60,556 bases of DNA from Candidatus Moranbacteria bacterium RIFOXYB1_FULL_43_19 (GTDB lineage Bacteria > Patescibacteriota > Minisyncoccia > Moranbacterales > UBA11712), in contig MFSH01000006.1 in NCBI GenBank assembly GCA_001784875.1, positions 1 to 60,556 on the forward strand, given 5' to 3'. A model generated the notes under the pieces. It ran no database searches. It had not been told where the DNA came from and saw only the letters and a list, made by a program, of their open reading frames with translations. A program made the translations under genes and the position numbers. Positions 5,463 through 53,272 of the stretch are shown here, one piece after another; position 1 is the first letter of the stretch, and each line of letters begins with the position of its first letter.

Positions 5463-5987
5463 TTATTCCTCGGAATATTTTTTGACTAAAAACCGGAAAA
5501 AGTCCAGCTTCTTTTCGGTCGCCAGATTTATGCCGGCCTTCTCGGAAGCGATGGAAATCTGTTGCCAGGCAGTTTCGATTGCTTCAAGGCCGGGCAGCAG
5601 CAATCCGCACCGCCCGTCAGGAGCTTTCACAATAACACCGTATTTTTTCGGGTCAAGGCTTTCAGGATTTGCAATTTTTTCCGGCTCGCTCAAGATGCTG
5701 ACTTCGATGGATAATTTCGGCAATTCCTCCGGACTCACAGGAAAGAAACGATTATCCTGAGAACAAGCGGTAACGGCGTTCAGAACGATTTCTTCGGCCA
5801 GATTTTTGTGGACCGGGAGATATGTGCCGATACATCCCCGCAATTCTTTGCCTTTATGAATACTCACGAAAACTCCATTTTTTTTCTCATAAAATTCCGG
5901 CGGCAAGTTGTCCGGAATATCGATAATTTTTCGGTGCTTGATGTATTTCTCTATCGCTCTTCGCGCTAATTTTGCGTATTCGTTCAT
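5463..5987 (-). CDS. amrA: AmmeMemoRadiSam system protein A (AMMECR1 family)
   Basis: GVFVSIHKGKELRGCIGT, DNRFFPV, IEVSILS, GLLLP motifs. Confidence 0.93.
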   Translation of the reverse strand: MNEYAKLARRAIEKYIKHRKIIDIPDNLPPEFYEKKNGVFVSIHKGKELRGCIGTYLPVHKNLAEEIVLNAVTACSQDNRFFPVSPEELPKLSIEVSILSEPEKIANPESLDPKKYGVIVKAPDGRCGLLLPGLEAIETAWQQISIASEKAGINLATEKKLDFFRFLVKKYSEE

Positions 5988-6005
5988 TTTGAAATGAATT
6001 GATCT

Positions 6006-6803
6006 TTATTTAATATTCAAGTTAACAACCATATACCCGACTCCGAACGGCGCTTCGTAGCTCAAGGATTTCACCTCCCATCTCAAATTTTCCAGAGCCC
6101 CCAAAAGCATGATAATCGACCTTAGTCCGCATTCCCCGGCGTCTTCAATAAGATACGGATCAAGATTGAGAATCCCCTTGGTATTTTTCCGCCGGATAAG
6201 ATCAGCAAGTGTCCTGTCGAAGATTCTTCCCTGGGGCGAATAGCCAGCCGGAGAGTCGGAAGTGACCCGGTGCGACAAGTCGCCGCTGGCAATGAAAGAA
6301 ACTATTTTGGGACTGCTCTCGAGAACTTTTCCCAAAACTTCTCCGAAATGGAAATGATAGTCAAAAGGCAACATGGAAAAAGACATATGGATAAGCCGCG
6401 GATTATAGCTTACGTCCTTTTCACTGATCAGATAGTGAAGGGGGACCAGCGCGCCATGGTCAAGTTCCAATTCTCTCGCCAGGCCGACCGGCAAGTGGGA
6501 TGAGCGGCAGTTTTTTACTATTTCGTCAATGAGCTCGCGGTCGTTTTCGAAGATGAATTTTCTATGGTCGCCGAAAGAGGAAAGATCGCCGCGAAGGGTG
6601 GGGGAGTAGTTTATAATGAACTTGTCGTATTGGACCGGTCCGTGGGGCGAAACAATCACAATCGTGTCCGCTTTCACGGAGCGGAATTTTTCTCCCGCCG
6701 CTTTCATCGCGTTCACGGTCTTTCGGCACAAATTCAAGTTGCTCCGGCCGATAGTCGGAATGATGATAGGCGGATGGGGGGTAATGGCGGCATATCTAAT
6801 CAT
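6006..6803 (-). CDS. amrB: AmmeMemoRadiSam system protein B (MEMO1 / extradiol dioxygenase-like)
   Basis: PHPP, SPHG, LDHGALVPL, ASGDLSH, ECG, SYEAPFGVGY motifs. Confidence 0.9.
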   Translation of the reverse strand: MIRYAAITPHPPIIIPTIGRSNLNLCRKTVNAMKAAGEKFRSVKADTIVIVSPHGPVQYDKFIINYSPTLRGDLSSFGDHRKFIFENDRELIDEIVKNCRSSHLPVGLARELELDHGALVPLHYLISEKDVSYNPRLIHMSFSMLPFDYHFHFGEVLGKVLESSPKIVSFIASGDLSHRVTSDSPAGYSPQGRIFDRTLADLIRRKNTKGILNLDPYLIEDAGECGLRSIIMLLGALENLRWEVKSLSYEAPFGVGYMVVNLNIK

Positions 6804-7696
6804 ATGTTTCCCGTATAAACATGCTTGAGTCCGGCTTTTTTTCCGATTTCACAGGCTTCTTTCACTTTTTCAACTGGCGTTTCGGAAAGGCGCTGGAGTT
6901 TCCAGGAGATGGCTCCCGAAAAAGCGCTCACGTGCCAGGGAACAAAATCACCCAGTTCTTTTCTGATGAAATTGGCAATTTTTTCAAGCATTTTTTTGTC
7001 GTCCGATAATTTTGGGATTATAAGGGTTGTAATCTCCAGCCAAATCTTTTTTTTCACAATCTCCTTGCAGTTTTCGAGAACCGGCTTGAGCCGGGCTCCG
7101 CAATTTTCAAGGTAGAATTTGTCATCGAAGGACTTGATGTCTATGTTTATGGCGTCGAGATAGGGCGCCACAAGCTCCAGAGTTTCCGGGCTCATAAAAC
7201 CGTTGGAAACCCAGATATTTTTGAGCCCCGCTTTTCTGGCCAGCTTCATGGTGTCAAGGGCATATTCGAGAAAGATTGTCGGTTCGGTGTAGGTATAGGA
7301 GATGCTCGGGCATCCGCTTTCCTTTGCCAGCCGGACAACTTCTTTCGGCGGAAGATTTTCTCCGCTTCCCGCGATCATCTCGCGGGTTGCTTTCCGACTT
7401 TTCGAAAATTGGGAAATTTGCCAATTCTGGCAGTTCCCACAGCGGAAATTGCACCCGACAGTGGCGATGGAAAAGGTGAATGTACCGGGCAAAAAATGAT
7501 AAAGCGGTTTTTTTTCCACCGGATCAATGCTGGCCGCAACAGCCCTTCCATAAGCGAGGAAGTATAGTTTTCCGTCCACATTCTCCCGCACTCCGCAAAC
7601 TCCGCGATGCCCCGGCGCCACTAGACAGAAATGATTGCAGGTTTTGCATCGGACATTATTATTTCCTAATCTTTCGTATAAAACGGATTCTTTCAT
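6800..7696 (-). CDS. amrS: AmmeMemoRadiSam system radical SAM enzyme
   Basis: N-terminal C..C...C zinc-like motif, DPVEKKPLYHF, CNFRCGNCQN (CxxxCxxC), YTYTEPTI. Confidence 0.95.
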   Translation of the reverse strand: MKESVLYERLGNNNVRCKTCNHFCLVAPGHRGVCGVRENVDGKLYFLAYGRAVAASIDPVEKKPLYHFLPGTFTFSIATVGCNFRCGNCQNWQISQFSKSRKATREMIAGSGENLPPKEVVRLAKESGCPSISYTYTEPTIFLEYALDTMKLARKAGLKNIWVSNGFMSPETLELVAPYLDAINIDIKSFDDKFYLENCGARLKPVLENCKEIVKKKIWLEITTLIIPKLSDDKKMLEKIANFIRKELGDFVPWHVSAFSGAISWKLQRLSETPVEKVKEACEIGKKAGLKHVYTGNI

Positions 7697-7775
7697 AATT
7701 TGCCTAAATGCGAAATATTTAATACAATCTTATCATAATCAACTTTTATTTTCAAAAAATATCCGCATCAAATTT

Positions 7776-8150
7776 ATGAATAAAGCAGAAACCGGAAAAA
7801 TTATTGAGCTGGCCCCGATTCGAAGACATAGGGAATATGAAAAACAAAAGTCTGAAATCCAAAAAACTGTGGAGTTCGGCAGTATTGCGCAAGTTGTGGA
7901 AATGATAGAAAACGGAGAAGTCGACCAAAAAATGCTTTTCAAGCGCAAAAATTCAACCGAAACAGAATTGTTTATGTTGAAAAAAATATGCGAATTAATG
8001 GAGCAAACTGACATTGATGCGCAATCTCAAGATCGGGCGGAAAGCGAAATTGCGCTTTTGAAAGAAGAACGAAATGATCTTAAACGACAGTTAGTGAAAG
8101 CAAAACAAATAATCGAAAGATTGGCTTCGAGGAAAGATACTAATACATAA
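7776..8150 (+). CDS. Hypothetical protein with C-terminal coiled coil
   Basis: 124 aa from ATG 7776; fills the gap between amrS and folD; heptad-like EIALLKEERNDLKRQLVKAKQIIERL. Confidence 0.65.
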   Translation: MNKAETGKIIELAPIRRHREYEKQKSEIQKTVEFGSIAQVVEMIENGEVDQKMLFKRKNSTETELFMLKKICELMEQTDIDAQSQDRAESEIALLKEERNDLKRQLVKAKQIIERLASRKDTNT

Positions 8151-8172
8151 CACCTTTTTCAGACTCATAAAT

Positions 8173-9006
8173 ATGGCTCTCCTCGACGGCAAAAAGCTGG
8201 CCGGAAAAATTATCCGGGATCTCAAAAAGCAGGTTTCGCGCCGAAAAAAGAAGCCTGTTTTGGCAATGGTTTTGGTCGGAAGCGATCCGGCGTCTTCGAT
8301 TTATGTCCGGCGAAAAGGCATATTTTGCGAAGAAGCGGGGATTATATCAAAAACCTTGAGGCTTCCCGCCGATACTTCCGAGAAAAAACTTCTGGCGATT
8401 ATAAATAAGTTGAATAAAGACAAAAACGTTTCCGCTATTATGGTCCAACTTCCACTTCCGAAACATATCAACAAGACCAAAATTATCGAAAGTATTGATC
8501 CCAAAAAAGACGCTGACTGCCTCCACCCGGAAAATTTTGGCAAGTTCGTGCAGGCCAATGAGGAATATTCAATTGTTGCCCCGGCCACGCCTTTTGGAAT
8601 CGTGAGGCTTCTTGAAGAATATAAAGTGAAAATTGAGGGCAAGCACGCCATCGTTGTCGGACGCTCAAATATCGTTGGGAAGCCAGTCGCCCAATTGCTC
8701 TTGAACCGCGGAGCGACTGTCACTGTCTGCCACCGCCATACGAAGAACTTGGCCGCTTTCACGCGCCAGGCGGACATTCTTGTCGTTGCTGCCGGGAAAA
8801 GAAATTTGATTCGGGCCAATATGGTCAAGAGAGGGGCGATTGTGATTGACGTCGGCGTCAACCATGTCGGAAAGAAAATTTTCGGTGATGTTGATTTTGG
8901 GAGTGTCTCGAAAAAAGCCTCGTATATTACTCCTGTTCCGGGAGGCGTAGGGCCAGTGACAATTGCGATGCTTTTGTGGAACACGGTGAGATTGGCGAAA
9001 AAATAG
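8173..9006 (+). CDS. folD: Bifunctional methylenetetrahydrofolate dehydrogenase/cyclohydrolase
   Basis: LLDGK, MVQLPLP, KDADCLH, GRSNIVGKP, ITPVPGGVGPVT. Confidence 0.97.
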   Translation: MALLDGKKLAGKIIRDLKKQVSRRKKKPVLAMVLVGSDPASSIYVRRKGIFCEEAGIISKTLRLPADTSEKKLLAIINKLNKDKNVSAIMVQLPLPKHINKTKIIESIDPKKDADCLHPENFGKFVQANEEYSIVAPATPFGIVRLLEEYKVKIEGKHAIVVGRSNIVGKPVAQLLLNRGATVTVCHRHTKNLAAFTRQADILVVAAGKRNLIRANMVKRGAIVIDVGVNHVGKKIFGDVDFGSVSKKASYITPVPGGVGPVTIAMLLWNTVRLAKK

Positions 9007-9035
9007 AATTTTTTAGTCGTCCTGACAAAACTTTC

Positions 9036-10526
9036 TCAGACAAGATCTTCAAGCTCTTCTTCGGGAGCTTTTTTCTTTCGCAGAAGCTGTTTCGCCAGCT
9101 CAAGCTCTTGTGAGCCGAATTCTTTGAGAACAAAAAGCAAAAGAAGGTATATTGCAAATAAAATTGCCGACCAAGCAATGAAAACATAATGCCCACCTGA
9201 AAAAAAAGTTGAGAGAAAATACATAATCGCCGATGCCAAAACTATTTTCAAAAAACTGGAAAGCTTAAACAAATACCCGAAATATTTGTAAGAATAAGCA
9301 AGAATCAGAGCCATCGCCACAAAAGAGGTGATTGAGGTGGCGACTGCCGCGCCAGGAAGGGCGTATTTTTTTATGAAAAAATAGCTCAAAACGATATTGG
9401 TTGCCAGTCCCACAAACGAAATAAGCATCGGGGTTTTCACACGTCCTGCGCCGTTCAAAGCAAAAGCCATAACATAAAATATCGTGAGAAACGCCACGCC
9501 GCCCATGAGAATTGACATCGGAAGAGCTGCGTCAAGAAATTTCTTGCCGTAGAATATTTGAAGTATCGGCGCTGAATAAACAGACATCAAAATTGAAATG
9601 GGGAGCAGAAACATCACCATGAGTCGAAGTGAATGGCTGATCAGTTTTTTTGTTTCAGCGTGATTTTCGCTCGAAGTGGATTTTGAAACGGCGGGCAGGA
9701 TAATGATTGTAAGGGCATAAAAAAGAAAATAGGGAATGCGCCCGACAGTAATTGCACCGTTGTAGAGTCCGGTCAGCCTGTCATCCCGCAAAATCCCTTT
9801 CACAAGATACAGATCAATTGTAATCAAGAACTCGTAGGCAATCAGGAAAAGCGTCATCGGCCAGGCGTAGCGGAGAAGCTTTCGCCAGTCAAAGAAGCCT
9901 TCCGGCTTTTGTTTTTTATAGGGATCAAATAAGGTTGCCGCCAGAAAAACAAAAAAAGGAGCAAAAACATACCCGATAATCGCTCCCTCAAGGGCCAACC
10001 CTCGAGATTTCAGATAATACGCAAGGCCAAGAATAAACCCCAGGCGCGCGACTGACCGGATGGTTTTGAGCCAGGCTTGGGTGCTGAACTGATGAAGACC
10101 GGTGTAATAATAGAAATAAAAAGATGCCAAAGAGAAAGCGGGGATAACGAGTGATGAAATTCGAAATAAATTCGTGAGGCTTGGATCGCCGAGAATCCAG
10201 GAAATGAACGGGGATAGGAGAAAAAATAAAATTGTTACGCCGCCGATCAAAAAAAGCTGGACTTTGGCCGTTTGTTTTTTAATGATCGGAATGAGACCAA
10301 GCTTTGTGTCGTATATTTCCCCGAGATATTTTGCCATCGCGGTCGGCACGCCTTGGCCGATGAGCACGACGACCATCGTTGTCAATGTGACAACGAGACC
10401 GTAGCGTCCATACTGGGCCGGACCCAAAATCCGCCCCATACCGGAATGGATGATGTATGCCGAGAGATTATATATCACTTCCGAGAGCGTGACCCAGAAA
10501 AATGATTTTACAAGAAACCTACTCAT
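9036..10526 (-). CDS. Polysaccharide flippase (Wzx/MOP superfamily)
   Basis: 496 aa with about 14 TM segments; ILGPAQYGRYG, TGLYNGA...GRIP, ILPAVS. Confidence 0.85.
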   Translation of the reverse strand: MSRFLVKSFFWVTLSEVIYNLSAYIIHSGMGRILGPAQYGRYGLVVTLTTMVVVLIGQGVPTAMAKYLGEIYDTKLGLIPIIKKQTAKVQLFLIGGVTILFFLLSPFISWILGDPSLTNLFRISSLVIPAFSLASFYFYYYTGLHQFSTQAWLKTIRSVARLGFILGLAYYLKSRGLALEGAIIGYVFAPFFVFLAATLFDPYKKQKPEGFFDWRKLLRYAWPMTLFLIAYEFLITIDLYLVKGILRDDRLTGLYNGAITVGRIPYFLFYALTIIILPAVSKSTSSENHAETKKLISHSLRLMVMFLLPISILMSVYSAPILQIFYGKKFLDAALPMSILMGGVAFLTIFYVMAFALNGAGRVKTPMLISFVGLATNIVLSYFFIKKYALPGAAVATSITSFVAMALILAYSYKYFGYLFKLSSFLKIVLASAIMYFLSTFFSGGHYVFIAWSAILFAIYLLLLFVLKEFGSQELELAKQLLRKKKAPEEELEDLV

Positions 10527-10530
10527 AAAT

Positions 10531-10593
10531 TCAAAATGCGAATATCAAAATGCAAAATGATAATGGAAAATGTAAAATTTTCGAATTTTGATT
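10531..10593. repeat. Degenerate 7-bp tandem repeat array (TCAAAAT-type), partly inverted
   Basis: TCAAAAT GCGAATA TCAAAAT GCAAAAT GATAATG GAAAATG TAAAATT TTCGAAT TTTGATT. Confidence 0.6.
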
Positions 10594-10643
10594 TGTCGGT
10601 TTGGCAGAATTTCGCTGAAAGCGAAAGAGGTGGTGTGACCTTT

Positions 10644-11222
10644 TTAATCTTTGATTTTTGATATAATACTTTCGAATATTTCCTCTTTGTCCTTCTCTCC
10701 ATCTAAAACCATCATATCCCAATCTTCTATTCTTTGCGCGTATATTTTTTCTTTCGCCGCCAAGTATTCCAACCCCTGATCCGGCTTTCGCTCGCGCCGC
10801 ATTATTTTTTCCGGATCAACTTTGAGATAAAAGGCAAAATCGGGCCAAGGAATGAATTTTTCCGCAAATATTTTACTTGGAAGTTCGGCTTCCAAGTAGT
10901 TTATATTCACCACGGTGTCATAAAAATATCTATCGCTTATAATATAATCAACCTTCAATTTCTTCAATAATCGATTAAATCTGCAAGTATCAATCATCAG
11001 CGCAAGTTTCCGCAATTGAATTTTCAACCAATTCGCTTTGGTTACGCTTCCAATATTTTGACTTTTGACCTTTGGCTTTTGACATAAATTCCCGATTGAA
11101 AACTCTACGGCATGAAAATAATAAAAAGACTTTCCCTGTGATCTCAGGCAATTTTTAAGCAATTCAATTTGAGTCGATTTTCCGGAGCCATCAGGACCGG
11201 AAATAGATAATAATATAGGCAT
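10644..11222 (-). CDS. Thymidylate-kinase-like P-loop kinase (divergent)
   Basis: ISGPDGSGKSTQ Walker A, IISDRYFYD, PD.AFYLKVDPE; start taken at MPILL (11222). Confidence 0.8.
   Translation of the reverse strand: MPILLSISGPDGSGKSTQIELLKNCLRSQGKSFYYFHAVEFSIGNLCQKPKVKSQNIGSVTKANWLKIQLRKLALMIDTCRFNRLLKKLKVDYIISDRYFYDTVVNINYLEAELPSKIFAEKFIPWPDFAFYLKVDPEKIMRRERKPDQGLEYLAAKEKIYAQRIEDWDMMVLDGEKDKEEIFESIISKIKD
10875..10897. repeat. Palindromic element inside the kinase CDS
   Basis: ACTTGGAAG-TTCGG-CTTCCAAGT; the 27-mer 10875-10901 is identical to 51805-51831. Confidence 0.85.
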
Positions 11223-11255
11223 TGACAAAATATATTTATTGTGCTTATATATAAT
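11222..11255 (+). promoter_or_regulatory. Putative sigma70 promoter for the small ORF at 11286
   Basis: TTGACA (11222-27), 18-nt spacer, TATATA(AT); followed by SD AAGGAGG (11269-75). Confidence 0.45.
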
Positions 11256-11285
11256 TAATCTGACGTTTAAGGAGGGAAGAAAAAT

Positions 11286-11513
11286 ATGGAAACTCAGATT
11301 GGGGCAAAAATGCCCGTCAGCCAACTATTAACCAACGCCTTCGTGACCCGAGGAGGAAAGCCCTTTTTGGCATCAGCGATTGGCGTAAACGTCACGATTT
11401 GCCCTGTTGACAGGGCGGGGCGAGTCATTGGCAAAAAAGAGCTCCTGCCAGCCGGTGAATTTTATCTCGAGGTCATCCATCCGGACGACCTGCGCAAATT
11501 TAGCGGGAGATAA
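11286..11513 (+). CDS. Small hypothetical protein (75 aa)
   Basis: Strong SD AAGGAGG, candidate promoter upstream and terminator downstream; opposite strand to both neighbours. Confidence 0.75.
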   Translation: METQIGAKMPVSQLLTNAFVTRGGKPFLASAIGVNVTICPVDRAGRVIGKKELLPAGEFYLEVIHPDDLRKFSGR

Positions 11514-11540
11514 CCCGAAATGCAGAAAAAACCTGTTCAG

Positions 11541-11584
11541 CGCCCTTATTATAGGCAGCCTCATCGCCTGTGATAAGGGCTTTT
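11541..11584 (+). terminator. Long-stem intrinsic terminator
   Basis: GCCCTTATTATAGGC-AGCCTCATC-GCCTGTGATAAGGGC (15-bp stem with G:U pairs) then TTTTT. Confidence 0.75.
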
Positions 11585-11605
11585 ATTTATCCTAAAAAAC
11601 TAATC

Positions 11606-13129
11606 CTAATACATCAGCACCGCCACCGGTTCCATTTTCGCCACTACGTGAGCAACACCATTGTCTTCAACACCTGCAATGACCTTGTTAATATCTTTAT
11701 ATCTTGCGGAATCCTGATCGACAACTATTCGCGACCGGGCGTTATAAAGCCGCACGCCTTTATCTTTCATTTTTGCAAACAGTTCATCTTTTGTGGTGAT
11801 GGATTTTTCTTTTTCATTTTTTCCTTTTCCGGTGCCGTGGGGAGCGGAGAAAAAACTATCCTCATTTTTGTCCGTCCCGACGCAAATATAGGCATCGGTG
11901 GACATGGAAGAGGGAACGAACACCGGCTCGCCGGTTTTTTTGTAAACCGGATGATTGGCCATTCTGGCCGGCCCAAAAGACCGCGAAGTGTTGCTGCGAT
12001 GGACCCAAACATCGTTCCCGAAATGATTTTCTTTGGATATTGATATGTGGGGCATATCATAAATCAAATCCATCTCCGGATCGCGGTTGAAAAGTTTTTT
12101 GATTGTTTGCGAGATGTTGTGAGTGATGACCGCCCTGTTAGCCGAGCCAAAATTGGAAGCAGCGGCTCGAGCGTCCATATACATTTTGCCATCCGGGCCG
12201 TCGGCACCGTACCTTAGGAGCGAGTTGTCTCCCCGCATATGGCGCTTTATATTCTTTTGCATTTCATAATAAATATCTTTTTTTCTCGAGCCGAATGTCA
12301 ATTTGCCCAGACTGACCATCGTTGATTGGGATATGTGCTCCCGTTTCTTGGCGGTATGGGTATACATAGTGTATTGTCCTAAAATTCCGGAACCGGTATG
12401 AACCATGAAAAGGTACTGCCCTTTTTTAAGTCCTAGAATTTCCGCCATTTCGGGATCAACGAGATCGGACACTTTCATGAGATCTAAAAAATGGTTCCCG
12501 GCCGCACCGAGGATGCCCAAGCGAAATTTGGCAAAAAATAGAAATAATTTCGGAATAACGTCAAAAATATCCTGGCGCGTCACTTCACGCGAAAAAAAAT
12601 TTCCGCCGTTTTGGGTATTTTCCAATTCGTTTTTAGTTTTGATTCCGAGGTAATCAATGACGGCTCGCGTGCCTTTCCGGCAGATGTCTACGACGACATC
12701 AAAAGGGACTTTTGTTCCGACGAGTTTTTTGGTAGGAACCGCTTTTATCAGCTCTTGAAAAAGTTTTTCAATCTGTTCCGGCGAAAAATTATCTTCCGAG
12801 AGATTCGTCTTGAGAAGTCGCATACCGCAGTTGGGATCGGAATCGTTGACTTGAGGAAGAATATATTTTTCGGAAACAACCACTGTTCCGGACGCATTTT
12901 TCCGGCCTGGTTTTGATGAGACATCCGGCATAGCCACAAGATTGTGAAAAAGGGTATCCGGATTGGAAGCCACGTCCTCCAGTTTGTTCCAGGTCTCATC
13001 TTCAGGAAGCAGGTCTTCGCTCATGAAAAAAATTGCCGGAACTTTCATTTTGTCCGTCTGGAATTTCTTTTTATGAGCGGTTAGGGATTCTATCTTGTGT
13101 TCCATGATTCTTGGTTCTTCAATCGACAT
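11606..13129 (-). CDS. Divergent RtcB-family protein
   Basis: MPDV, DPNCGMRL, GNHFL, MVHTGS, YDMPH, VHR, APHGTG, YKD motifs align with the RtcB metal and guanylylation sites. Confidence 0.88.
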   Translation of the reverse strand: MSIEEPRIMEHKIESLTAHKKKFQTDKMKVPAIFFMSEDLLPEDETWNKLEDVASNPDTLFHNLVAMPDVSSKPGRKNASGTVVVSEKYILPQVNDSDPNCGMRLLKTNLSEDNFSPEQIEKLFQELIKAVPTKKLVGTKVPFDVVVDICRKGTRAVIDYLGIKTKNELENTQNGGNFFSREVTRQDIFDVIPKLFLFFAKFRLGILGAAGNHFLDLMKVSDLVDPEMAEILGLKKGQYLFMVHTGSGILGQYTMYTHTAKKREHISQSTMVSLGKLTFGSRKKDIYYEMQKNIKRHMRGDNSLLRYGADGPDGKMYMDARAAASNFGSANRAVITHNISQTIKKLFNRDPEMDLIYDMPHISISKENHFGNDVWVHRSNTSRSFGPARMANHPVYKKTGEPVFVPSSMSTDAYICVGTDKNEDSFFSAPHGTGKGKNEKEKSITTKDELFAKMKDKGVRLYNARSRIVVDQDSARYKDINKVIAGVEDNGVAHVVAKMEPVAVLMY

Positions 13130-13131
13130 AT

Positions 13132-13157
13132 ATTCTAGTTCACTGGAGAACTAGAAT
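13132..13157. other. Perfect 10-bp hairpin just upstream of the RtcB-like start codon
   Basis: ATTCTAGTTC-ACTGGA-GAACTAGAAT; start codon at 13129. Confidence 0.6.
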
Positions 13158-13166
13158 CTTTGCTGA

Positions 13167-14297
13167 TTATTTGAAAATTATTTCGGAATAGATTTTTTCG
13201 TATTCCTCGACAATTTTCATTATATCAAAATTTTCCCTCGCGAATCGCAGGCCTTTTTCACCAAGCTCGCGCCGCGCCTCTGAATTGTTGTGTAAATAAA
13301 GTATCTTTTCTTTGAGCGCTGCATGGTCACCAACCTCAATTAAGATGCTGTTCTCACTGTTCAAAAAATATTTCAGCCTTTCCAGATTGCTTGCAATCAC
13401 CGGTTTTCCGCAAGCCATCGCCTCCGGAATTACAAGGGGAATATCGAATTTTCCGGCCATCGTCCGGGCGGGAAAAATAGAGATGTCGCAGAGGTTGAAA
13501 ATATCCTCCATGACATAACTCCCGTCATCGATAAATACCACTTGACCCAAAGCTTCTTCCTTCTCAAATCTTTTTCTCACTTCTTGCTTCTTTTCAGCGT
13601 CTTTTCCATTTTTCACCCGGACAGCCAGATGTAATTTGAGATTTTTGTTAACTTTCGCCAGATCGGAAAAAACCGAAACAATGTCGTCCATATCTCCCAG
13701 CCGAACATATTCGCCAGTATAATTTATCACGAAGTCATTTTCTTTTGTTTCAAATTTTTGCATCAGCTCCGGTTTTTTTGGGGCGGGAGAGAATAAACTG
13801 ATATCAATTCCAGGATAAATTCTTTTCACATTGCTAAATCCAATTTTTTCAAGTTTTTCTTTGGAATAGTCGGAGTAGGCGATGATTAGATCGGCGTAGA
13901 TTATTCTTTTTAAATGTTCGTCGCCATAAATATCATCCCGAAGCGTAGCCAGCGTCTGAATGGTTTTCAATTTCTTGTTTCGTAAACACATTTTCAGCGC
14001 AAAAACATTCAATTTTGTCGGTGTGAAAAAAGAGTGGATAATATCATAATCCTTCCCGCCCTTCAAAAAAATTTCTTTGACTAGGAATAAGTATGCCCGC
14101 ACTTTTTGCCCAAAATCCCACTTTGGAGATGTATAAATCTTGTGCTGAACAACATTTTCCGGAAGATCTGCTACTTTGCCAAAGGTCAAAAGATGCACCT
14201 CGAAATCCCGTGCGTGCTTTGCCAGAGTATACGCGAAATCTTTGGATCCCTCGTCCCACGGCGGACAAATCGGCCGGGTTAGTAAAAGTATTCTCAT
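13167..14297 (-). CDS. Glycosyltransferase family 4
   Basis: PWDEGSK, IYPGID, DIPLVIPEAMACGKPVIAS (GT-B EX7E-like region). Confidence 0.9.
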   Translation of the reverse strand: MRILLLTRPICPPWDEGSKDFAYTLAKHARDFEVHLLTFGKVADLPENVVQHKIYTSPKWDFGQKVRAYLFLVKEIFLKGGKDYDIIHSFFTPTKLNVFALKMCLRNKKLKTIQTLATLRDDIYGDEHLKRIIYADLIIAYSDYSKEKLEKIGFSNVKRIYPGIDISLFSPAPKKPELMQKFETKENDFVINYTGEYVRLGDMDDIVSVFSDLAKVNKNLKLHLAVRVKNGKDAEKKQEVRKRFEKEEALGQVVFIDDGSYVMEDIFNLCDISIFPARTMAGKFDIPLVIPEAMACGKPVIASNLERLKYFLNSENSILIEVGDHAALKEKILYLHNNSEARRELGEKGLRFARENFDIMKIVEEYEKIYSEIIFK

Positions 14298-14695
14298 TTC
14301 AAATTCTTATAAATTCTATACTTCAGGTCTTTCGCGCTGATTTCAAGCGAAACTCTTGCATCATTTTTTCTTTCAAGGTCAAAAAGCGGCGCGACCTGTC
14401 GTGTTTCGCCGGCTTCAATTTCGACTTGGCCTTCGGCAATCTTTTTTCCATCGGCCAAAATTTCATAGCTGTATTTCATTTTCTCGCCTTCATGGTTTTC
14501 AATCGCAAAATCAAGCGAATCACCCGCCTGCAGCGATGCAGCAGCTTCGGGAAGGTCCCGCGGATTTTCAAAATAGGCGACGCTCCACGATTTTTTGTAG
14601 TCGAGATCGTGGTTTTTTGTCTCGACGACGAAAAGCACCGAAAAACTGACAAGAAGAAGAATTATGGTTGCAATGACAATAATTTTGGAGGACAT
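14294..14695 (-). CDS. Membrane-anchored small hypothetical protein (DUF1616-like Ig-type domain possible)
   Basis: N-terminal TM from MSSKIIVI (14695), then a beta-rich domain; the in-frame upstream extension to 14758 is repeat-derived. Confidence 0.7.
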   Translation of the reverse strand: MSSKIIVIATIILLLVSFSVLFVVETKNHDLDYKKSWSVAYFENPRDLPEAAASLQAGDSLDFAIENHEGEKMKYSYEILADGKKIAEGQVEIEAGETRQVAPLFDLERKNDARVSLEISAKDLKYRIYKNLK

Positions 14696-14703
14696 AATTT
14701 TCC

Positions 14704-14763
14704 AAAGCTCGGCTTTTTCCTCCCTCCCTTCGCGAAGGGAGGGATTCCTCAAAGCCAAGCTTT
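14704..14763. repeat. Nested palindromic element
   Basis: AAAGCTCGGCTTT (14704-16) and AAAGCCAAGCTTT (14751-63) are inverted (12/13); they flank the perfect palindrome TCCCTCCCTTCGCGAAGGGAGGGA (14721-44). Confidence 0.75.
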
Positions 14764-16625
14764 TAGTTTCGTTTAAAAACCGAAATGTAATTTGAACTAT
14801 ATATCTTGGAAAAATCCGGATATTGTTCGAAACTGTTTCCTTCGAGTTGAGCGTTCAGGACGACGTAATTCACTCCTGTTTCTGAAAAGCACAGTCTTCC
14901 CTGGTCGCTTTCGGGCTCCATGATCATGTCCCTCGTGCAGATTTCCCGAGGTTTTGTCGGATCAACATAGCGTGACAAATTCCCGCGGCTCAAAGGATAT
15001 CTATAGTCTTTCATAAAAAACAACTTGTACCAGGAATCGGCGTATATGTTCACATGGTCCTTGAGCACCACGTCCTTCGCGGTGTCCAACCTGTCGGCCA
15101 AATACTGGGCGGAATGAAAGGTCTGGATGGCTTCCTGAAACTGCGGCCGGGTCTTGAATGCTTCGGCGCTGTCAGCCATTCCATCCGTGATCACAAAAAA
15201 CAGCAGAACGAAAAGGAGGACGGAAGAAAAAAAGACAGTCGAACTCTTTTTGAAAAGCCTCAAAAATTCAACCAGGCCAAAAGCGGCAAGCAGAGAAAGC
15301 GGAAGATACAGATAATTCCCGATCCGGTCGCTGGGAATATTGACATAGAGCCACCCCGGCTTCGCGCTCATGAGGAGCAATACGGCTGCCCAGGCGAGAG
15401 CGAAGCTGAATTGGTAATCTTTCCTATTAAAAACCCAAAAAAGCAATGCGAACCCCAAAGCGCCAAGAATTAGCCTCGCGCTTCCGGCATTTGCCTCTAT
15501 CTGATTGAAGCTTAGTCCGACTCTGGTTATTTTTGACGGCTCGCCGGTGGCCTGGCTGACAGCCGAAGGGTTGAAATAAGAGGGAGTAAATATAAGTAAA
15601 AAGTAAAAAGTTAAAAGAAAAAGGATGACTATCGGGAAAGGCTTTAAAAATATTTTCAGCCAATCGCCCATGATTTTGAAAGCCCGCTCAAAATTGAGCC
15701 CGAGATGGAGCAAAATAATCGCGGCGATTGAATAAAGCAAAATAAAACTTGAAAGATGGTGGGTATATAGAAGTCCGACACTCGAAAAAATAAAAAGGCT
15801 GGCAAAGACTGAATCTTTTTCTGAAAGCGCCCGATACAAAAAGTACAAAACAACCGGAATGAGCATGTTGCCGATGATATTTCCGACTACGCCGCCGCTA
15901 ACATACTTTGCTTGAGGGGCATTTATCGCGTATAAAACTCCGGTGACAAAAAAAGCCATGGCTGCTATTTTCGGGCTTTTGAAAATCCTTCCAGCGAGTA
16001 TTGACAGAGCAAATATCCCGACGATATTGAAAAAAAGCAAAACAAGGGCCGGCATCGCCCCTAAAATCGCCGCGCCGCTCAAAAGATTGAAAACCGAAAA
16101 AACCATATGTTCGCCGATAATAAAGTCCGGCATTCCGTAGTCAGGAAGCTGGCCGCTGTCAACAATTGCCTGACTCCAATACATATGGTGGCCCAGATCA
16201 GTGGAAGAGGGAATGATCGTATCCGAAAGATAAGTTGTTCGAATGAAAATCGCGAGAAATAGCGAGATCAGGATGAAAATTGCCTGCCAATAAGAAAAAT
16301 TAAAGAAATCATGCAATACTTCTTTTTTTCCGGCCTCTTTTTTTTCTTTTCCGGTGAAGCGAAATTGAAAAATTATATATCCGATAATCGAAAAAATGAG
16401 AATTGATCCAACGAGAACCGGTCCGCTCAAAAAAATATGCATCCGGTTGAGAAGCAAAACCAGAAAATCAACCGAAATCAAGCTCATAGGAACAGTGAGA
16501 ACTGCTTTTTCGAAAAAAGAAATTTTTGAATTTCTCCAGCCAAAAACAGCCAGTAAAAGACAGAATCCTGGGAGCACAAGCACGAAAGGAAAAGTCAAAA
16601 TGAGTTTTAGCAGATCTAAAATCAT
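14763..16625 (-). CDS. Multi-pass membrane protein, GT-C-like (DUF6541/DUF2206-like)
   Basis: 620 aa, more than 12 TM; VLPG...S.FEK N-terminus, luminal PSSTDLGHH, YTHHLS, C-terminal soluble domain. Confidence 0.7.
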   Translation of the reverse strand: MILDLLKLILTFPFVLVLPGFCLLLAVFGWRNSKISFFEKAVLTVPMSLISVDFLVLLLNRMHIFLSGPVLVGSILIFSIIGYIIFQFRFTGKEKKEAGKKEVLHDFFNFSYWQAIFILISLFLAIFIRTTYLSDTIIPSSTDLGHHMYWSQAIVDSGQLPDYGMPDFIIGEHMVFSVFNLLSGAAILGAMPALVLLFFNIVGIFALSILAGRIFKSPKIAAMAFFVTGVLYAINAPQAKYVSGGVVGNIIGNMLIPVVLYFLYRALSEKDSVFASLFIFSSVGLLYTHHLSSFILLYSIAAIILLHLGLNFERAFKIMGDWLKIFLKPFPIVILFLLTFYFLLIFTPSYFNPSAVSQATGEPSKITRVGLSFNQIEANAGSARLILGALGFALLFWVFNRKDYQFSFALAWAAVLLLMSAKPGWLYVNIPSDRIGNYLYLPLSLLAAFGLVEFLRLFKKSSTVFFSSVLLFVLLFFVITDGMADSAEAFKTRPQFQEAIQTFHSAQYLADRLDTAKDVVLKDHVNIYADSWYKLFFMKDYRYPLSRGNLSRYVDPTKPREICTRDMIMEPESDQGRLCFSETGVNYVVLNAQLEGNSFEQYPDFSKIYSSNYISVFKRN

Positions 16626-16626
16626 A

Positions 16627-17733
16627 CTAGGTTTTTTCTATGACTTCTAAATATCTTCTTGCAATCTTATCCCAACTATAATTCTCAAGCGTAAATTGGC
16701 TGGCTTTTTCTCCGAATTTTTTTCGGAAATCATCATCAGACAAGATTTTTTTTATTTTTTTTTCCCAGATATCCGCTTTTTCCGGCTCGAGAAGAAATCC
16801 GTTTTGTCCATCTTTTACTGCGTCCCGAAGCCCCTCAAGATCAGCCGCCAAAACAACTCTTCTGCAAGCGGCCGCCTCAATAGCAGTTATACCGAATCCT
16901 TCCAGAGACCCATGAACTTTTATGTTCGGGGAAATGTATAAATCGCACACATTGAAAAGAATCTTCATTTGCGGCCTTGGCAGGTTGAGCATCAGCTTCA
17001 CTCGATTTCGCATTCCCAGATCTTTGACCGCTTTTTCGCATTTCGGATAATAGTTTTCATCCCCCGCGGTTTTCCTCGCGATTCCGCCGCCCGCCGCGAC
17101 CAATAAATAATTTTCCGGAAGTTTCGTCATCACATTTCGAATAAACCATTCCACGCCCTTATGCTTTGTGAATCTTCCGCCCCTGAAAATCACTTTTTTA
17201 CCGCCAAGGTCAATTCCGAGTAGCTTCTCCAGGTCTTTTCCATTATCTTTGGAAATTATTTCATTCATGTCGAACCCATTGGGCACGAATTCGCATTTTT
17301 CTTCCGGAATTCCCAATTTTTGCGCTTCAGCAATCGTTTCTCTTCCGACCATGATCAAACGGTCAAGTTTTTTGAGAGATGGTATATTGACACTCCTGTA
17401 TACTTTTCCAAGAAATGATTTTTTATGTGCAAAAGTAATGTCCAAGCCATGCACTATAGAAATATATTTTTTCTTTCGGAAAAAAGTTTTCCAAAGAACT
17501 GCAAGGGGAGACAGAATGCCGTCACCAATGAGAACAACGTCATATTTTGGAATGACAAAAAAGGATTTCAGTGCAACCCAGGGCAAAAAAAACGGCAGAT
17601 TTTTTTTCCCAAGTTTATTGGCGATTATTCTCGTCGGGGTGATTTCGGAGAGGGCATGAGCAATGCCATAGTTCTGATTCTCGATGCCTCCCAAAACCGG
17701 CGGGTAAGCCCGGGAAATAAAGAGTATTTTCAT
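16627..17733 (-). CDS. Glycosyltransferase family 4
   Basis: YPPVLGGIE, VHGLD, VPNG, EGFGITAIEAAAC. Confidence 0.92.
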   Translation of the reverse strand: MKILFISRAYPPVLGGIENQNYGIAHALSEITPTRIIANKLGKKNLPFFLPWVALKSFFVIPKYDVVLIGDGILSPLAVLWKTFFRKKKYISIVHGLDITFAHKKSFLGKVYRSVNIPSLKKLDRLIMVGRETIAEAQKLGIPEEKCEFVPNGFDMNEIISKDNGKDLEKLLGIDLGGKKVIFRGGRFTKHKGVEWFIRNVMTKLPENYLLVAAGGGIARKTAGDENYYPKCEKAVKDLGMRNRVKLMLNLPRPQMKILFNVCDLYISPNIKVHGSLEGFGITAIEAAACRRVVLAADLEGLRDAVKDGQNGFLLEPEKADIWEKKIKKILSDDDFRKKFGEKASQFTLENYSWDKIARRYLEVIEKT

Positions 17734-17788
17734 AAAAAAGCCACAAAATTACTATACCACAGCCAGCCAAAAAAATCGAGCTTTCTAT

Positions 17789-17817
17789 TTGCCTTGGAAC
17801 TGCATTTATCGTATGAT
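17789..17817 (+). promoter_or_regulatory. Putative sigma70 promoter (near-leaderless) for GT4 at 17827
   Basis: TTGCCT-17 nt-TATGAT; ATG 9 nt downstream of the -10 box. Confidence 0.55.
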
Positions 17818-17826
17818 AATAGCAGC

Positions 17827-18954
17827 ATGAAAATCGGCATAAACGCCTCATTTTTGAGGAAAATCGACACTGGCATCGGCCAGGTGACACAAGGATTTGT
17901 CCAGGAGCTTGCAAAATCCCATTCGAAAAAGAACGAGTATTTTTTGTATCTCGAAAAAGACATCAACTTGAATCTCCCTAAAAATTTCCAAAAGCGCGTT
18001 TTTCTGCCGTTGCTTTGGCGGCGCGACGATTTGATTCGAAAAGTATGGTGGGAGAAAATTCTCTTGCCGCGACGCGCCAAAAAAGACGGATGTGATGTTT
18101 TTGTCTCGCTTTATCAATGCCCGACTTTTTTTCCGAAAAATATACGGCACAAAATGCTCGTCCATGACCTTATTCCGAAAGTTTTTCCGGAATATCTTGA
18201 TAACTGGCGCAAAAAAATATATTTCTTTTTTTCGAATCAGGCTGTTCGGAGCGCCGACAAAGTATTTACTGTTTCTGAATGGTCGAAAAAGGACATTCAC
18301 AAATATCTCAAGGTGCCGAATAAAAAGATAGAAGTAGTTCACCCAAGCGTCGGGGAGAATTTTTTCGAAAGAGCGAGCCACGAAAAAGATAACTCGGTTT
18401 TGGAAAAATATGGAATTTTTGGTCGCTATATTTTTTACGTCGGCGGATTCGACTTCCGGAAAAATGTTTCCGCACTCTTGAAGGCATATCGAAGGTTGAT
18501 TGAAAGATACGAGATAAACGACGTAAGCCTGGTTCTGGGAGGGGAAGACAAATCACGGTTCAGCCCTCTTTTCACCGATATAAAAAAGGAAATTGAGATA
18601 CTCGGGCTTGAAAAAAAAATAAAATTGACTGGTTTTATCGCGCAAAAAGATCTGCCGGCTTTTTATCGCCAGTGCGAACTTTTTGTCCTGCCAGCTTTGT
18701 ATGAGGGTTTCGGGCTTATGGCTCTTGAGGCAATGGCATCCGGCACGCCAGCGGTTGTTTCAAAAACTTCTTCTCTTCCCGAAGTCGGCGGCGACGCGGT
18801 TCTTTATTTCAATCCCTATGACGAAGAAGAGATGTCCCGGGTGATGGGAAAAATTCTGCAAAACGACAAATTGAAAAGGGCTTTGTCCGAGCGCGGAAAG
18901 AAAAGGGCCCAAAAATTCAGCTGGAAAAAATTCGTGGAAATAATTTTGAAATAA
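17827..18954 (+). CDS. Glycosyltransferase family 4 (mannosyltransferase-like)
   Basis: MKIGINASFL, VHDLIP, RKNV, YEGFGLMALEAMASGTP; true start at 17827 within ORF 17425..18954. Confidence 0.92.
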   Translation: MKIGINASFLRKIDTGIGQVTQGFVQELAKSHSKKNEYFLYLEKDINLNLPKNFQKRVFLPLLWRRDDLIRKVWWEKILLPRRAKKDGCDVFVSLYQCPTFFPKNIRHKMLVHDLIPKVFPEYLDNWRKKIYFFFSNQAVRSADKVFTVSEWSKKDIHKYLKVPNKKIEVVHPSVGENFFERASHEKDNSVLEKYGIFGRYIFYVGGFDFRKNVSALLKAYRRLIERYEINDVSLVLGGEDKSRFSPLFTDIKKEIEILGLEKKIKLTGFIAQKDLPAFYRQCELFVLPALYEGFGLMALEAMASGTPAVVSKTSSLPEVGGDAVLYFNPYDEEEMSRVMGKILQNDKLKRALSERGKKRAQKFSWKKFVEIILK

Positions 18955-19037
18955 TTTTCACTACAATTAGTTGTAGTATGCAATTTCAAAAATTTATTCC
19001 AATTAACATTCACTACGATATATCGTGGTGAGAAAAA

Positions 19038-20720
19038 ATGTCTATCTATAACAATCCAGGAAATATTATAAAAAATATTTTCAAAAGAGAACTCACCTGG
19101 GTTTGGGTTTTTGGTTTTGTCTTGAGTCTGGCTGCTGTGGCTCTTTCTGCAAAAAATAAACTGCCTCTCGGGAAAGGGGATTTTGTTTTTCTTGCTCTGG
19201 TGACTTTGCTTGTGGCGCTCTACCGTCCCCGCTGGATATTTTTTCTTTTCGTGGGAAGCATTTCTCTCGAAAACATAATTTTGACCGGCGGTTTTCTCCC
19301 GATTCAATTGCGGCTCTATCAGTTTTTCGGAGGAATATTGATTCTGGCTTTGGCTATTCTATTTGCCTCCAAACGGCTTAGTTTCAAACTGCTCAAACCA
19401 ATTTGGATCGATTGGCTTGTTTTTTCGCTGATTCCTTTCAGCTTCCTGGCTCTGATGGCCGCTCCGAACAAATCTGCCAGCCTTAAAAATAATTTCGTTT
19501 TAATTTCTTTTGTCGCCCTATATTATCTTTCCCGCAATTTCATGAGAAGCCGGAAGGATTTTGCCAAAACAGCCGCTTTTTTGACAATTTCTTTTTTGGC
19601 AACAACTTTATTCGGCTTTTGGCAGGTTTTCGCCGATAAATTCGGTGCCAAATCTCTTGAGGTGATGTTTGGGCGGCCAAATTCCACTTTTACGGAACCA
19701 GATTGGCTGGGGCTATATTTGTGCTTCGCGCTGGCCGTTTTTCTTTCGTTGATGTTTTATATCCTCCAGACAAAGAAAAAGGCATTCGTTTCAAAAAAAT
19801 CTTCCGCCTTGATTTTGGATATTTTGATTTTTCTCGACGTGACATTGATTGTTCTGACACTTTCCCGCTCGGCTTGGATTGGAGCGGCCGCCGTTTTCAC
19901 TTTTTACTTCCTTGCGCTTGTGCCATCGCAAAAATATATTTCCGCCAGAAAATATGCTGCGGGCTGGAGAGGATTTTTGAGAGAAGCGGCAATAATATTT
20001 TCGATTGTTGTTATCTCTCTGGCAACAGTTCATTTTGGAAAACTTTCGAAGTTTGATCTAAGCGACCGGGCGCGTTCAGCGGCTACCAGCGAACAAAAAA
20101 TCACAATCGCCTGCGAAAATAGTACGAGTATTTTGCAAACAGTTTCCAACACGGACGAACTGAAAAAATTCAATTGCCGGCATATCAATCTCGAGGAAAT
20201 TAATTTCTATAAATCGCAGGGAAAAGTCGTCACTGAAATTTTCCGGAAAGACCCGAATGTGATGACTCGAAGCGCGATTTATCAAAAAAGCTGGGAGATT
20301 CTCAAAATTCATCCAATCACGGGAGTCGGCTTTGGATCAATCACGCAAAATCTGGGAGCTGACGAGCGGGGAGCGGGGCTCAATGAGAGCAACGTTTTCC
20401 TTCAGGTCTGGGCGGGAAGCGGAATCTTTGGACTTATAGCTTTCGTTGTGGCAATTGGATATTTATTTGTTTACGCGTTTCGACGTGTATCTCCAGTCTG
20501 CCCAATGAATAAATTTTTTGGCTGTCCGATTATAAAGGATGATTTTGAAAAAATTTTATCTGTTTTCGCGGTCTTAGGCATTTCAGCCTTGATAATTCCA
20601 AATCTTTTCAACGCGGGGCTATTCATGGGAATTTTTTGGCTTGGATTGGCGGTTGTTGTAAATATTCGTGATTTTATTGAGGTCGAACCTCGCTCGGGCA
20701 AGGTGTTAGATATAATTTAG
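19038..20720 (+). CDS. O-antigen ligase / Wzy-like membrane protein
   Basis: Many TMs; RPNSTFTEPDWLG, LTLSRSAWIG, R..IYQKSWEI..HPITGVGFG, ESNVFLQ. Confidence 0.82.
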   Translation: MSIYNNPGNIIKNIFKRELTWVWVFGFVLSLAAVALSAKNKLPLGKGDFVFLALVTLLVALYRPRWIFFLFVGSISLENIILTGGFLPIQLRLYQFFGGILILALAILFASKRLSFKLLKPIWIDWLVFSLIPFSFLALMAAPNKSASLKNNFVLISFVALYYLSRNFMRSRKDFAKTAAFLTISFLATTLFGFWQVFADKFGAKSLEVMFGRPNSTFTEPDWLGLYLCFALAVFLSLMFYILQTKKKAFVSKKSSALILDILIFLDVTLIVLTLSRSAWIGAAAVFTFYFLALVPSQKYISARKYAAGWRGFLREAAIIFSIVVISLATVHFGKLSKFDLSDRARSAATSEQKITIACENSTSILQTVSNTDELKKFNCRHINLEEINFYKSQGKVVTEIFRKDPNVMTRSAIYQKSWEILKIHPITGVGFGSITQNLGADERGAGLNESNVFLQVWAGSGIFGLIAFVVAIGYLFVYAFRRVSPVCPMNKFFGCPIIKDDFEKILSVFAVLGISALIIPNLFNAGLFMGIFWLGLAVVVNIRDFIEVEPRSGKVLDII

Positions 20721-20771
20721 CTTGTCGGCAATATTTTTTGTTATTAATCGGCCGTAGCGAGGTTCGACCTC
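20679..20771. mobile_element. 93-bp element with perfect 16-bp inverted termini overlapping the end of the ligase gene
   Basis: GAGGTCGAACCTCGCT (20679-94) and AGCGAGGTTCGACCTC (20756-71). Confidence 0.8.
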
Positions 20772-20779
20772 TCAATTTT

Positions 20780-26232: not shown

Positions 26233-26253
26233 CAGGGAATTTTGTCGAGAAAA

Positions 26254-34482: not shown

Positions 34483-34609
34483 GAAAGAAATCAGCCTGTT
34501 TGAAATACCGCCCTTGCGCGAATAGTGATATAGTGATAATATATTGCCAAACAAGTATTTGAAAGATGGCAGCGCAACGAGAAAGAGTGCAGGAGCAAGA
34601 AATAAATTT

Positions 34610-35740: not shown

Positions 35741-35761
35741 ATTAGGAAAAATGTATAGACT

Positions 35762-35784
35762 TTCCTAAAGTCGAACTTTAGGAA
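35762..35784. repeat. Perfect palindrome at the MTase-rhuM junction
   Basis: TTCCTAAAGT-CGA-ACTTTAGGAA; same GT-CGA-AC core as the 20679 and 34392 repeats. Confidence 0.75.
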
Positions 35785-35795
35785 TAAGATAACTT

Positions 35796-48905: not shown

Positions 48906-48966
48906 AAAAAAATAAGCCCGCAGTCTTTTCAAAACCATTATGCTATATTTTACAACAAATGGGCAT

Positions 48967-50709: not shown

Positions 50710-50779
50710 GAAACCATTCTTTGAATTAAAAAGTTTTTATGAAAGGGGAAGCTTGCTATGGCCTCCCCCTCCAGACTGT

Positions 50780-50980: not shown

Positions 50981-50991
50981 ATGTCCCTCCT

Positions 50992-51984: not shown

Positions 51985-52022
51985 AATGCATTTCGAAAAA
52001 CTAAAATAGCAGCTTGTGTCAG

Positions 52023-53270: not shown

Positions 53271-53272
53271 TG

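Follow-up and report, generated by a model that had tools for sequence, protein, structure and literature searches.

A run of glycan-synthesis genes encodes an RtcB-fold and a Tmk-fold protein

The window analyzed here is a stretch of 60,556 nucleotides (positions 1 to 60,556) of contig MFSH01000006.1 of Candidatus Moranbacteria bacterium RIFOXYB1_FULL_43_19, and the names of its homologues likewise place it in the Moranbacteria, within the Candidate Phyla Radiation (CPR)/Patescibacteria. Our subject is a tight run of seven minus-strand genes (positions 9036-17733), in which a gene for a protein with the fold of the RNA ligase RtcB and a gene for a kinase with the fold of thymidylate kinase (Tmk) lie among genes for glycan synthesis. 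In the direction of transcription, the run starts with a GT4 glycosyltransferase, here GT4b (16627-17733; Pfam Glycos_transf_1, 102 bits), whose position is conserved in relatives, and continues with a polytopic membrane protein of 620 amino acids of the DUF1616/DUF6541 type (14763-16625). A small membrane protein of 154 amino acids, weakly conserved (28-64% identity) in most Moranbacteria-type loci, is encoded between the DUF1616 gene and the next glycosyltransferase gene (14294-14758). The latter encodes GT4a (13167-14297; Glycos_transf_1 and Glyco_transf_4), whose nearest relatives of solved structure are BshA enzymes (E 5e-11). It is followed by the RtcB-fold protein, subtype A1 in the classification given below, encoded by an open reading frame (ORF) of 507 codons (11606-13129), by the Tmk-fold P-loop kinase (10644-11222; Thymidylate_kin, 44.5 bits) and by a Wzx-type flippase of the multidrug/oligosaccharidyl-lipid/polysaccharide (MOP) group (9036-10526; Polysacc_synt, 79.6 bits, with Polysacc_synt_3 and MurJ). 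The ORF map and the Pfam matches reproduce the gene order and strand given in a preliminary description of this DNA, which had also called the 620-residue protein GT-C-like. Its nature as a membrane protein stands; the label itself draws on a sub-threshold DUF1616 match and on the matches of the orthologues to DUF1616 and DUF6541, and the protein is possibly a GT-C-like transferase.

The RtcB-like and kinase genes are separated by a non-conserved spacer of 383 bp without a Pfam match (11223-11605), which contains an ORF of 75 codons on the plus strand (11286-11513). The spacer has no counterpart in any of the related loci, and in many relatives the gap between the two genes measures only 10-30 bp. 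We considered this ORF as a part of the module and rejected it: it has no Pfam match, and neither its DNA nor its protein sequence is conserved in the 68 related loci. As the spacer is absent from many relatives and the ORF has no counterpart in related loci, we place the ORF outside the module. A promoter and terminator scan of positions 8900-18100 was uninformative, with about as many matches as in shuffled sequence. No tRNA genes or Rfam families were found in the window, which therefore offers no lead to a local RNA substrate or a riboswitch.

The RtcB-like protein keeps the catalytic core and lacks the contacts to guanine and to the RNA strand

The RtcB-like protein matches the Pfam family RtcB (PF01139) with 240.6 bits over model positions 3-424 of 426, and its AlphaFold model (mean predicted local distance difference test score, pLDDT, of 93) superimposes on the RtcB of Pyrococcus horikoshii (PhoRtcB; 4dwq, 1uc2) with TM-scores of 0.80-0.84. 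Its orthologues are 497-500 amino acids long and align from residue 8-13 of the 507-residue ORF, so the true start may be the second Met, at position 13105. In the alignment, Asp98, Cys101, Asn212, His213, His244, and His361 of the window's protein correspond to Asp95, Cys98, Asn202, His203, His234, and His329 of PhoRtcB, and His431 is the counterpart of the nucleophile His404. Of these residues, Cys101, His213, His244, His361, and His431 are invariant across an alignment of 48 sequences of the clade to which the protein belongs. The Asp95 equivalent is replaced by Ala in most other members, which keep His67, a residue that is changed in the window's protein (H67S). We ruled out that the RtcB-like protein is an inactive pseudo-enzyme, as all its catalytic residues are invariant. 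A single clade member, P0128, has lost the His203 motif (EPVVY) and shows an altered His234 motif (HSDPVN), and is probably inactivated. We also considered a fusion of RtcB with a glycosyltransferase or a kinase, and rejected it when the extra regions of the long RtcB homologues proved to contain no Pfam domain.

In canonical RtcB (PhoRtcB numbering), Lys480 contacts guanine O6, Glu206 contacts guanine N1/N2, and Asn330 contacts the gamma-phosphate of GTP (PMC9745838), while Arg238 holds the first two phosphates of the 5'-OH strand, which Arg190, Gln194, and His242 also bind (PMC8051266). Neither the guanine contacts Lys480 and Glu206 nor the strand contacts Arg238, Arg190, Gln194, and His242 are found in the RtcB-like protein. 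Its C-terminal Lys-Gly (KG) is replaced by MY, so that Lys480 becomes Met; other members of the clade have Thr or Ala at this position, and the C-terminus of the clade reads MY, TY, or MA. Glu206 is replaced by Asp in the window and by Ser, Thr, or Tyr in others (subtype B), Asn330 by Ile (Ile or Val in the clade), Arg238 by Gly, and Arg190 by Phe (Phe or Ile in the clade). The protein also carries H242Q and Q194R, and the four changes R238G, R190F, H242Q, and Q194R agree in two independent alignments. The mutation of the Arg238 equivalent of Escherichia coli RtcB (R189A) slows sealing 200-fold and the formation of the ppG intermediate only 3-fold (PMC8051266). The alignments to PhoRtcB and to the family thus bear out the two sets of motifs picked out by the preliminary description, namely those retained (DPNCG, GNHF, VHTGS, MPH, and APHG) and those changed (PDxH to PDVS, HTGSR to HTGSG, HN to HI, HRKG to HRSN, and KG to MY). 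An intact core from which the guanine and strand contacts have gone fits a substrate other than RNA. RtcA, archease, and RtcR, which had been described as absent from the vicinity, were not found in the window ORFs scanned, nor was PrfH; none of the four was found among the called genes of those related loci for which gene tables were available.

The Tmk-like kinase keeps the ATP side and has a rebuilt acceptor side

The kinase starts at the ATG at position 11222 and not at the TTG at 11324, which gives a protein of 192 amino acids identical to P0386. All the top fold-search matches of its structural model (pLDDT 88) are thymidylate kinases, with TM-scores of about 0.7. Against the NCBIfam equivalog for thymidine monophosphate (dTMP) kinase (TIGR00041), it scores 40.7 bits, with the cut-off at 83.25, and its orthologues are annotated as hypothetical protein at NCBI and as dTMP kinase at the Joint Genome Institute (JGI). 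The P-loop SGPDGSGKST and the motif SDRY are present, and YFHAVEFS stands where REPGG is expected, in agreement with the earlier observation that Walker A and DR are kept and the REPG-type motif is gone. Across the family we recognized the motifs SGlDGSGKSTQ, YFHaxxFS, LRkxxLxiDxxRF, SDRYFYDxxxN, and RERxPDQG; the residues G10, D12, G13-T18, D98-R99-Y100, and the lid arginines R144 and R146 are invariant.

A profile alignment with the TMPK of P. falciparum (PfTMPK), from which the numbering was counted, shows Arg47 replaced by Val, Phe74 by Ile, and Tyr107 by Asn. The Arg of REPGG/FPxR presumably binds the phosphate of TMP, while Phe74 would stack on thymine and Tyr107 would gate the sugar. 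The change from YFPNR in PfTMPK to YFHAV in the kinase removes this phosphate-binding Arg. Three new residues, His38, Asp79, and Asn107, are invariant in the kinase family. The equivalents of Arg78 and of the P-loop Asp17 of PfTMPK are retained, and we take them to be, respectively, the thymine-O4 contact and the binder of the 3'-OH in Tmk.

The three genes stay together across related loci

To the genes of the window we compared a sample of 44 species-level genome loci, 10 metagenome loci of the most divergent subtype, and 12 individual homologue look-ups, and linkage was counted among 62 non-redundant loci. A Tmk-like gene lies on the same strand, at most 3 kb downstream of the RtcB-like gene, in 54 of 56 loci, and in 23 of these the two are within 30 bp. 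GT4a is found at most 3 kb upstream in 50/53 loci, the full triad of GT4a, RtcB-like, and Tmk-like genes in 45/49, and Wzx downstream, within 5 kb of the RtcB-like gene, again in 45/49. The preliminary description had predicted that the clade would co-occur with a Tmk-like kinase, GT4, and Wzx, and these counts bear the prediction out across CPR classes; all the named members of the clade are CPR bacteria. The few loci with genes between the RtcB-like and kinase genes carry Wzy-like membrane proteins, a peptidase, or mobile-element genes there, and none of these identities suggests an extra pathway enzyme.

Most of the loci are Moranbacteria, so the counts do not represent independent events. 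Stronger evidence than the counts is that the triad stays intact where all else changes. It persists, often with overlapping reading frames, at 31-39% identity of the RtcB-like protein. In L053, L054, and L055 (31-36% identity), the frames overlap and the flanks hold LPG_synthase_TM, DUF2142, RmlABCD, GT2, or sulfotransferase genes; in the Saccharimonadales locus L056 they overlap as well, and the neighbouring genes are Metallophos, LPG_synthase_TM, Epimerase_2, and GT2. An LPG_synthase_TM protein takes the place of Wzx in L053, L054, and L056. A functional link of the module to glycan synthesis is well supported.

Phylogeny, outgroups, and subtypes

In a neighbour-joining tree, the clade without the terminal KG is monophyletic. 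Its nearest outgroup, P0126 (locus L070, on a contig of 33% GC content), keeps KG and Glu206, and its neighbours, arranged in another order, are LPG_synthase_TM, a GT4 resembling GT4a (E 4e-41), a B12-radical SAM enzyme, and a distant Tmk-like gene. A second outgroup, P0129 (L069:218-2585, 54% GC), likewise keeps KG and Glu206 and is followed after 8 bp by a GT4 gene. As both P0126 and P0129 lie beside GT4 genes, the GT4 linkage seems to predate the derived CPR clade and to be more widespread, on the strength of only two outgroup loci, and with the 54% GC of L069 the link to glycans may not be confined to the CPR.

Within the clade we distinguished four subtypes. Subtype A1, to which the window belongs, has PDV[SC], DPNCG, NHFLD, HGTGK, and LMY; A2 has SDVH, APNCG, and HGTGR; A3 has SDVH, APNCG, and HGTGK and mostly ends in LMA; and B has SHFL[SY], APFxx, NHEIGK, and LTY. 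The differences concentrate at the positions of the GMP pocket. Mean pairwise identity of the RtcB-like proteins is 75.4% within A1 and 37.6% between A1 and B. The corresponding values are 51.7% and 51.5% for GT4a, and 52.0% and 50.8% for the kinase. Neither GT4a nor the kinase co-varies with the subtype, so the nucleotide of the RtcB-like protein can apparently change without an adjustment in either partner. This provides a modest argument, drawn from sequence comparison, that the nucleotide would be a transient activating group rather than part of a donor used by GT4a.

Two further observations concern the subtypes. In the A2 loci L042, L043, and L058, the neighbours are 62-83% identical to those of the window and the RtcB-like protein only 56%, so that within a conserved locus this gene was either swapped or abruptly diverged. 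In addition, a Metallophos phosphoesterase gene adjoins the module almost always in subtype B loci (L051, L056 at 7749-8816, L057 at 13438-14763, L059-L064, L066, and L068) and rarely in A1 loci; its product may be one more component of the pathway or may provide a compensating activity.

Glycan context and other genes of the window

The seven-gene run faces a divergent arm on the plus strand (17821-21913) that encodes, according to Pfam, a GT4, a Wzy_C protein of the O-antigen polymerase/ligase type (19038-20720), and another GT4. Together, the two arms provide a MOP flippase, a Wzy_C protein, and four GT4 genes, the set by which a Wzx/Wzy locus is recognized. Farther along the plus strand (25174-27072), an LCP (LytR-CpsA-Psr) protein, of the type that ligates glycopolymers to the wall (LytR_cpsA_psr, 128.8 bits), is encoded together with a GT2 (Glycos_transf_2), and a TagA/WecG glycosyltransferase is encoded on the minus strand (44359-45081). 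The presence of Wzx, Wzy_C, the GT4 proteins, LCP, and TagA/WecG in the window indicates that the organism makes a wall-linked glycopolymer by a Wzx/Wzy-type route. The window ORFs scanned contain no MraY/WecA-type or Bac_transf-type domain of an initiating phosphoglycosyl transferase, which may be encoded elsewhere in the genome.

The TagA/WecG gene is adjoined by a gene for a LigT/2H-family cyclic phosphodiesterase (45102-45647, minus strand), the second enzyme of an RNA-end type near wall-polymer genes in this window; in L001-L003, a LigT-like gene is likewise present, some 8 kb away from the triad. A second glycan cluster (48177-58821) with GT2, GT4, GtrA, and PMT_2 genes contains a homologue of UDP-glucose/GDP-mannose dehydrogenases (54468-55283, minus strand) of 271 amino acids, which has a partial N-domain and no C-domain and is possibly truncated or frameshifted. 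The glycan locus is bordered by FolD, on whose far side three genes in succession (5463-7696, minus strand) make up a trio of the AmmeMemoRadiSam type, encoding AMMECR1, a Memo/LigB-like protein, and a radical-SAM enzyme. A sigma-70 factor of 891 amino acids (22362-25037, plus strand) has its regions 1.2 to 4 ending at about residue 540 and a C-terminal extension of about 350 residues without a Pfam match. Finally, an EcoRI-type adenine methylase, a RhuM-family protein, and a GmrSD_N-domain protein are encoded in a row (34544-37758, plus strand) and form a small defence or restriction islet.

A putative phospho-sugar ligase module

We propose, with a probability of about 0.5, that GT4a works together with the RtcB-like protein and the Tmk-like kinase as a dedicated cytoplasmic module of a Wzx/Wzy-type envelope glycopolymer pathway of CPR bacteria, in which the RtcB-like protein would act on a phosphorylated sugar, glycan, or head-group instead of RNA. 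In such a module, GT4a would make a glycoside, and the kinase, whose ATP site is intact and whose dTMP site is rebuilt, would use ATP to phosphorylate a hydroxyl of this intermediate or of a precursor. The RtcB-like protein would then load a nucleoside monophosphate (NMP) from a nucleoside triphosphate (NTP) onto His431 by means of its two-metal centre, the residues of which are present, probably recognizing the NTP otherwise than GTP is recognized. The NMP would be passed to the substrate phosphate to give X-O-P-O-P-nucleoside, the counterpart of RNA3'pp5'G, and the attack of a hydroxyl outside nucleic acids would yield a phosphodiester and release the NMP. The product could finally be flipped by Wzx or by the LPG_synthase_TM-type protein, as the gene context suggests. 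The preliminary description had already read the locus as one of glycan and not RNA chemistry; the co-occurrence and the residue pattern are consistent with that part, while its sugar kinase and its phosphodiester-forming enzyme keep the standing of a proposal. More tentatively, and at somewhat below even odds, the idea may be extended to the whole RtcB branch, that is to the CPR clade without KG and possibly to KG-bearing sister groups beside GT4 genes. Its members would be NTP-dependent, histidine-nucleotidylating phospho-sugar ligases which, with a dedicated Tmk-fold sugar or glycoside kinase, would make phosphodiester (teichoic-acid-like) links or activated sugar phosphates without CDP- or UDP-donors.

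The known enzymes make the individual steps plausible to different degrees. Canonical RtcB (P. horikoshii, E. coli, and human RTCB) has the same fold, Pfam family, Cys/His two-metal centre, and histidine nucleophile as the RtcB-like protein, so the three-step chemistry of nucleotidyl-histidine formation, phosphate activation, and hydroxyl attack is plausible for the latter. The two differ in that the RtcB-like protein has about 25 extra residues around positions 254-300, has Lys480, Glu206, Asn330, Arg238, and Arg190 all replaced, and is encoded between a GT4 and a Tmk-like kinase rather than with an archease, RtcA, RtcR, or PrfH partner. Myxococcus xanthus RtcB3 and, in the work on DNA3'pp5'G, E. 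coli RtcB reportedly guanylylate phosphomonoester ends and stop there, leaving capped ends as final products, which is the activation that a phospho-sugar would need. The substrates of these capping paralogues are nucleic-acid ends, their guanine pocket is preserved, and we know of no glycan context for them. A covalent histidine-NMP precedent exists in galactose-1-phosphate uridylyltransferase (GalT), which forms NDP-sugars by transferring the NMP to sugar phosphates; its HIT fold is unrelated, however, and its NMP comes from a UDP-sugar and not from an NTP. The kinase shares with thymidylate kinases (PF02223) the fold, the P-loop with its Asp, the DRY motif, and the arginine-rich lid, and departs from them in having YFHaxxFS for REPGG/FPxR and the new invariant His, Asp, and Asn, and in the constant place of its gene beside that of the RtcB-like protein. 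Phosphodiesters of wall polymers are otherwise made by TagB/TagF, LicD, Stealth/hexose-1-phosphate transferases, and phosphoglycosyl transferases, which have unrelated folds and release NMP from a pre-made CDP- or UDP-donor. The kind of product proposed here and its context of Wzx/Wzy, TagA, and LCP are alike, but activation and transfer would be combined in one RtcB-fold enzyme that works through His-NMP and starts from a phosphomonoester made by the kinase. In the literature searched, we came across no work that connects RtcB with glycan synthesis, with Tmk-like kinases, or with the biology of CPR/Patescibacteria.

Several observations count against the proposed module. In subtype A1, Asn202 and the Tyr-Lys pair of the GMP pocket are still present and position 206 is occupied by Asp, and on sequence grounds the RtcB-like protein of the window itself could still use GTP. 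Arg238 is missing, too, in many other non-canonical RtcB subfamilies of unknown function. The retained Arg and Asp of the kinase, which we take to be the thymine-O4 contact and the 3'-OH binder, leave room for a nucleotide as its acceptor. If the genomes have no canonical tmk, moreover, the kinase must make dTDP. With most loci coming from a single order, the Moranbacteria, only about five cases are independent (L053, L054, L056, L069, and L070), and CPR operons often mix unrelated genes.

One alternative is that an RNA repair or splicing ligase and a housekeeping dTMP kinase, without a functional link, have been kept beside glycan genes by inherited order in small, dense CPR genomes. Both proteins fall clearly within their Pfam families and folds, the RtcB catalytic core is complete, the RtcB-like protein is on average 75% conserved within A1, compared with about 50% for its neighbours, as a housekeeping enzyme would be, and JGI labels the kinase a dTMP kinase. 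In addition, T. maritima and T. thermophilus Tmk queries run against the window and the 68 loci matched only the RtcB-linked copies, so that no second Tmk appears in about 1.2 Mb of related DNA, all of it from this neighbourhood. Inherited order fits poorly, however, with a triad that holds, with overlapping frames, across CPR classes and differing flanks and that recurs in another order in L070. It also leaves aside that the residues gone from the RtcB-like protein are precisely the guanine readers and the holders of the 5'-OH strand, that the dTMP-site residues of the kinase have been exchanged for other invariant ones, and that the kinase falls under the NCBIfam dTMP-kinase cut-off and is hypothetical at NCBI. 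We consider this explanation unlikely, while giving it real weight.

Slightly less weight goes to two-step variants in which the module makes a nucleotide-sugar or nucleotide-linked head-group: the kinase would phosphorylate a scavenged sugar, the RtcB-like protein, as an unconventional nucleotidylyltransferase, would stop at X-P-P-nucleoside, and GT4a would use the product as its donor. This has the attraction of accounting for all three members of the triad as a self-contained unit; CPR bacteria rely on salvage, and the capped ends left by other RtcB enzymes would be a parallel. The loss of Arg238 fits as well, given that E. coli R189A is hit 200-fold in sealing and 3-fold in ppG formation (PMC8051266). 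Nevertheless, the nucleotide pocket varies by subtype while GT4a shows no matching divergence, and conventional NTP_transferase genes are present in some of the loci. We also know of no anomeric sugar kinase with the Tmk fold, and altogether we regard this explanation as rather improbable. We think it very improbable that the kinase is a nucleotide kinase serving the module, recycling the NMP released by the RtcB-like protein or by a phosphoglycosyl transferase, or making a donor like 3'-phosphoadenosine 5'-phosphosulfate from a nucleotide-linked intermediate. The Tmk fold, the P-loop Asp, and the equivalent of what we take to be the base-contact Arg are all kept, a sulfotransferase gene adjoins the triad in L053, and P-loop nucleotide kinases do act in capsule modification, such as the cytidine diphosphoramidate kinase in the O-methyl phosphoramidate (MeOPN) pathway of Campylobacter. 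Common NMPs would already be recycled by housekeeping NMP kinases, however, and the residues of true Tmks that we take to be the NMP-phosphate Arg and the base-stacking Phe are replaced.

Implications

RtcB is known only as an enzyme that joins nucleic-acid ends. The residues and gene neighbourhoods described here suggest that the chemistry of an RNA ligase has been turned to sugar phosphates, and there is a fair chance that the module represents a new functional class. If the dedicated phospho-sugar module is real, phosphodiester-linked wall polymers or activated sugars would be made by a new enzymatic route, and envelope biogenesis would clearly have recruited its chemistry from RNA repair. 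The database labels "tRNA-splicing ligase RtcB" and "dTMP kinase" would then have to be corrected for at least several hundred proteins. For the CPR/Patescibacteria, ultra-small episymbionts of reduced metabolism whose envelope mediates attachment to the host, the module would offer a first handle on how they decorate their surface.

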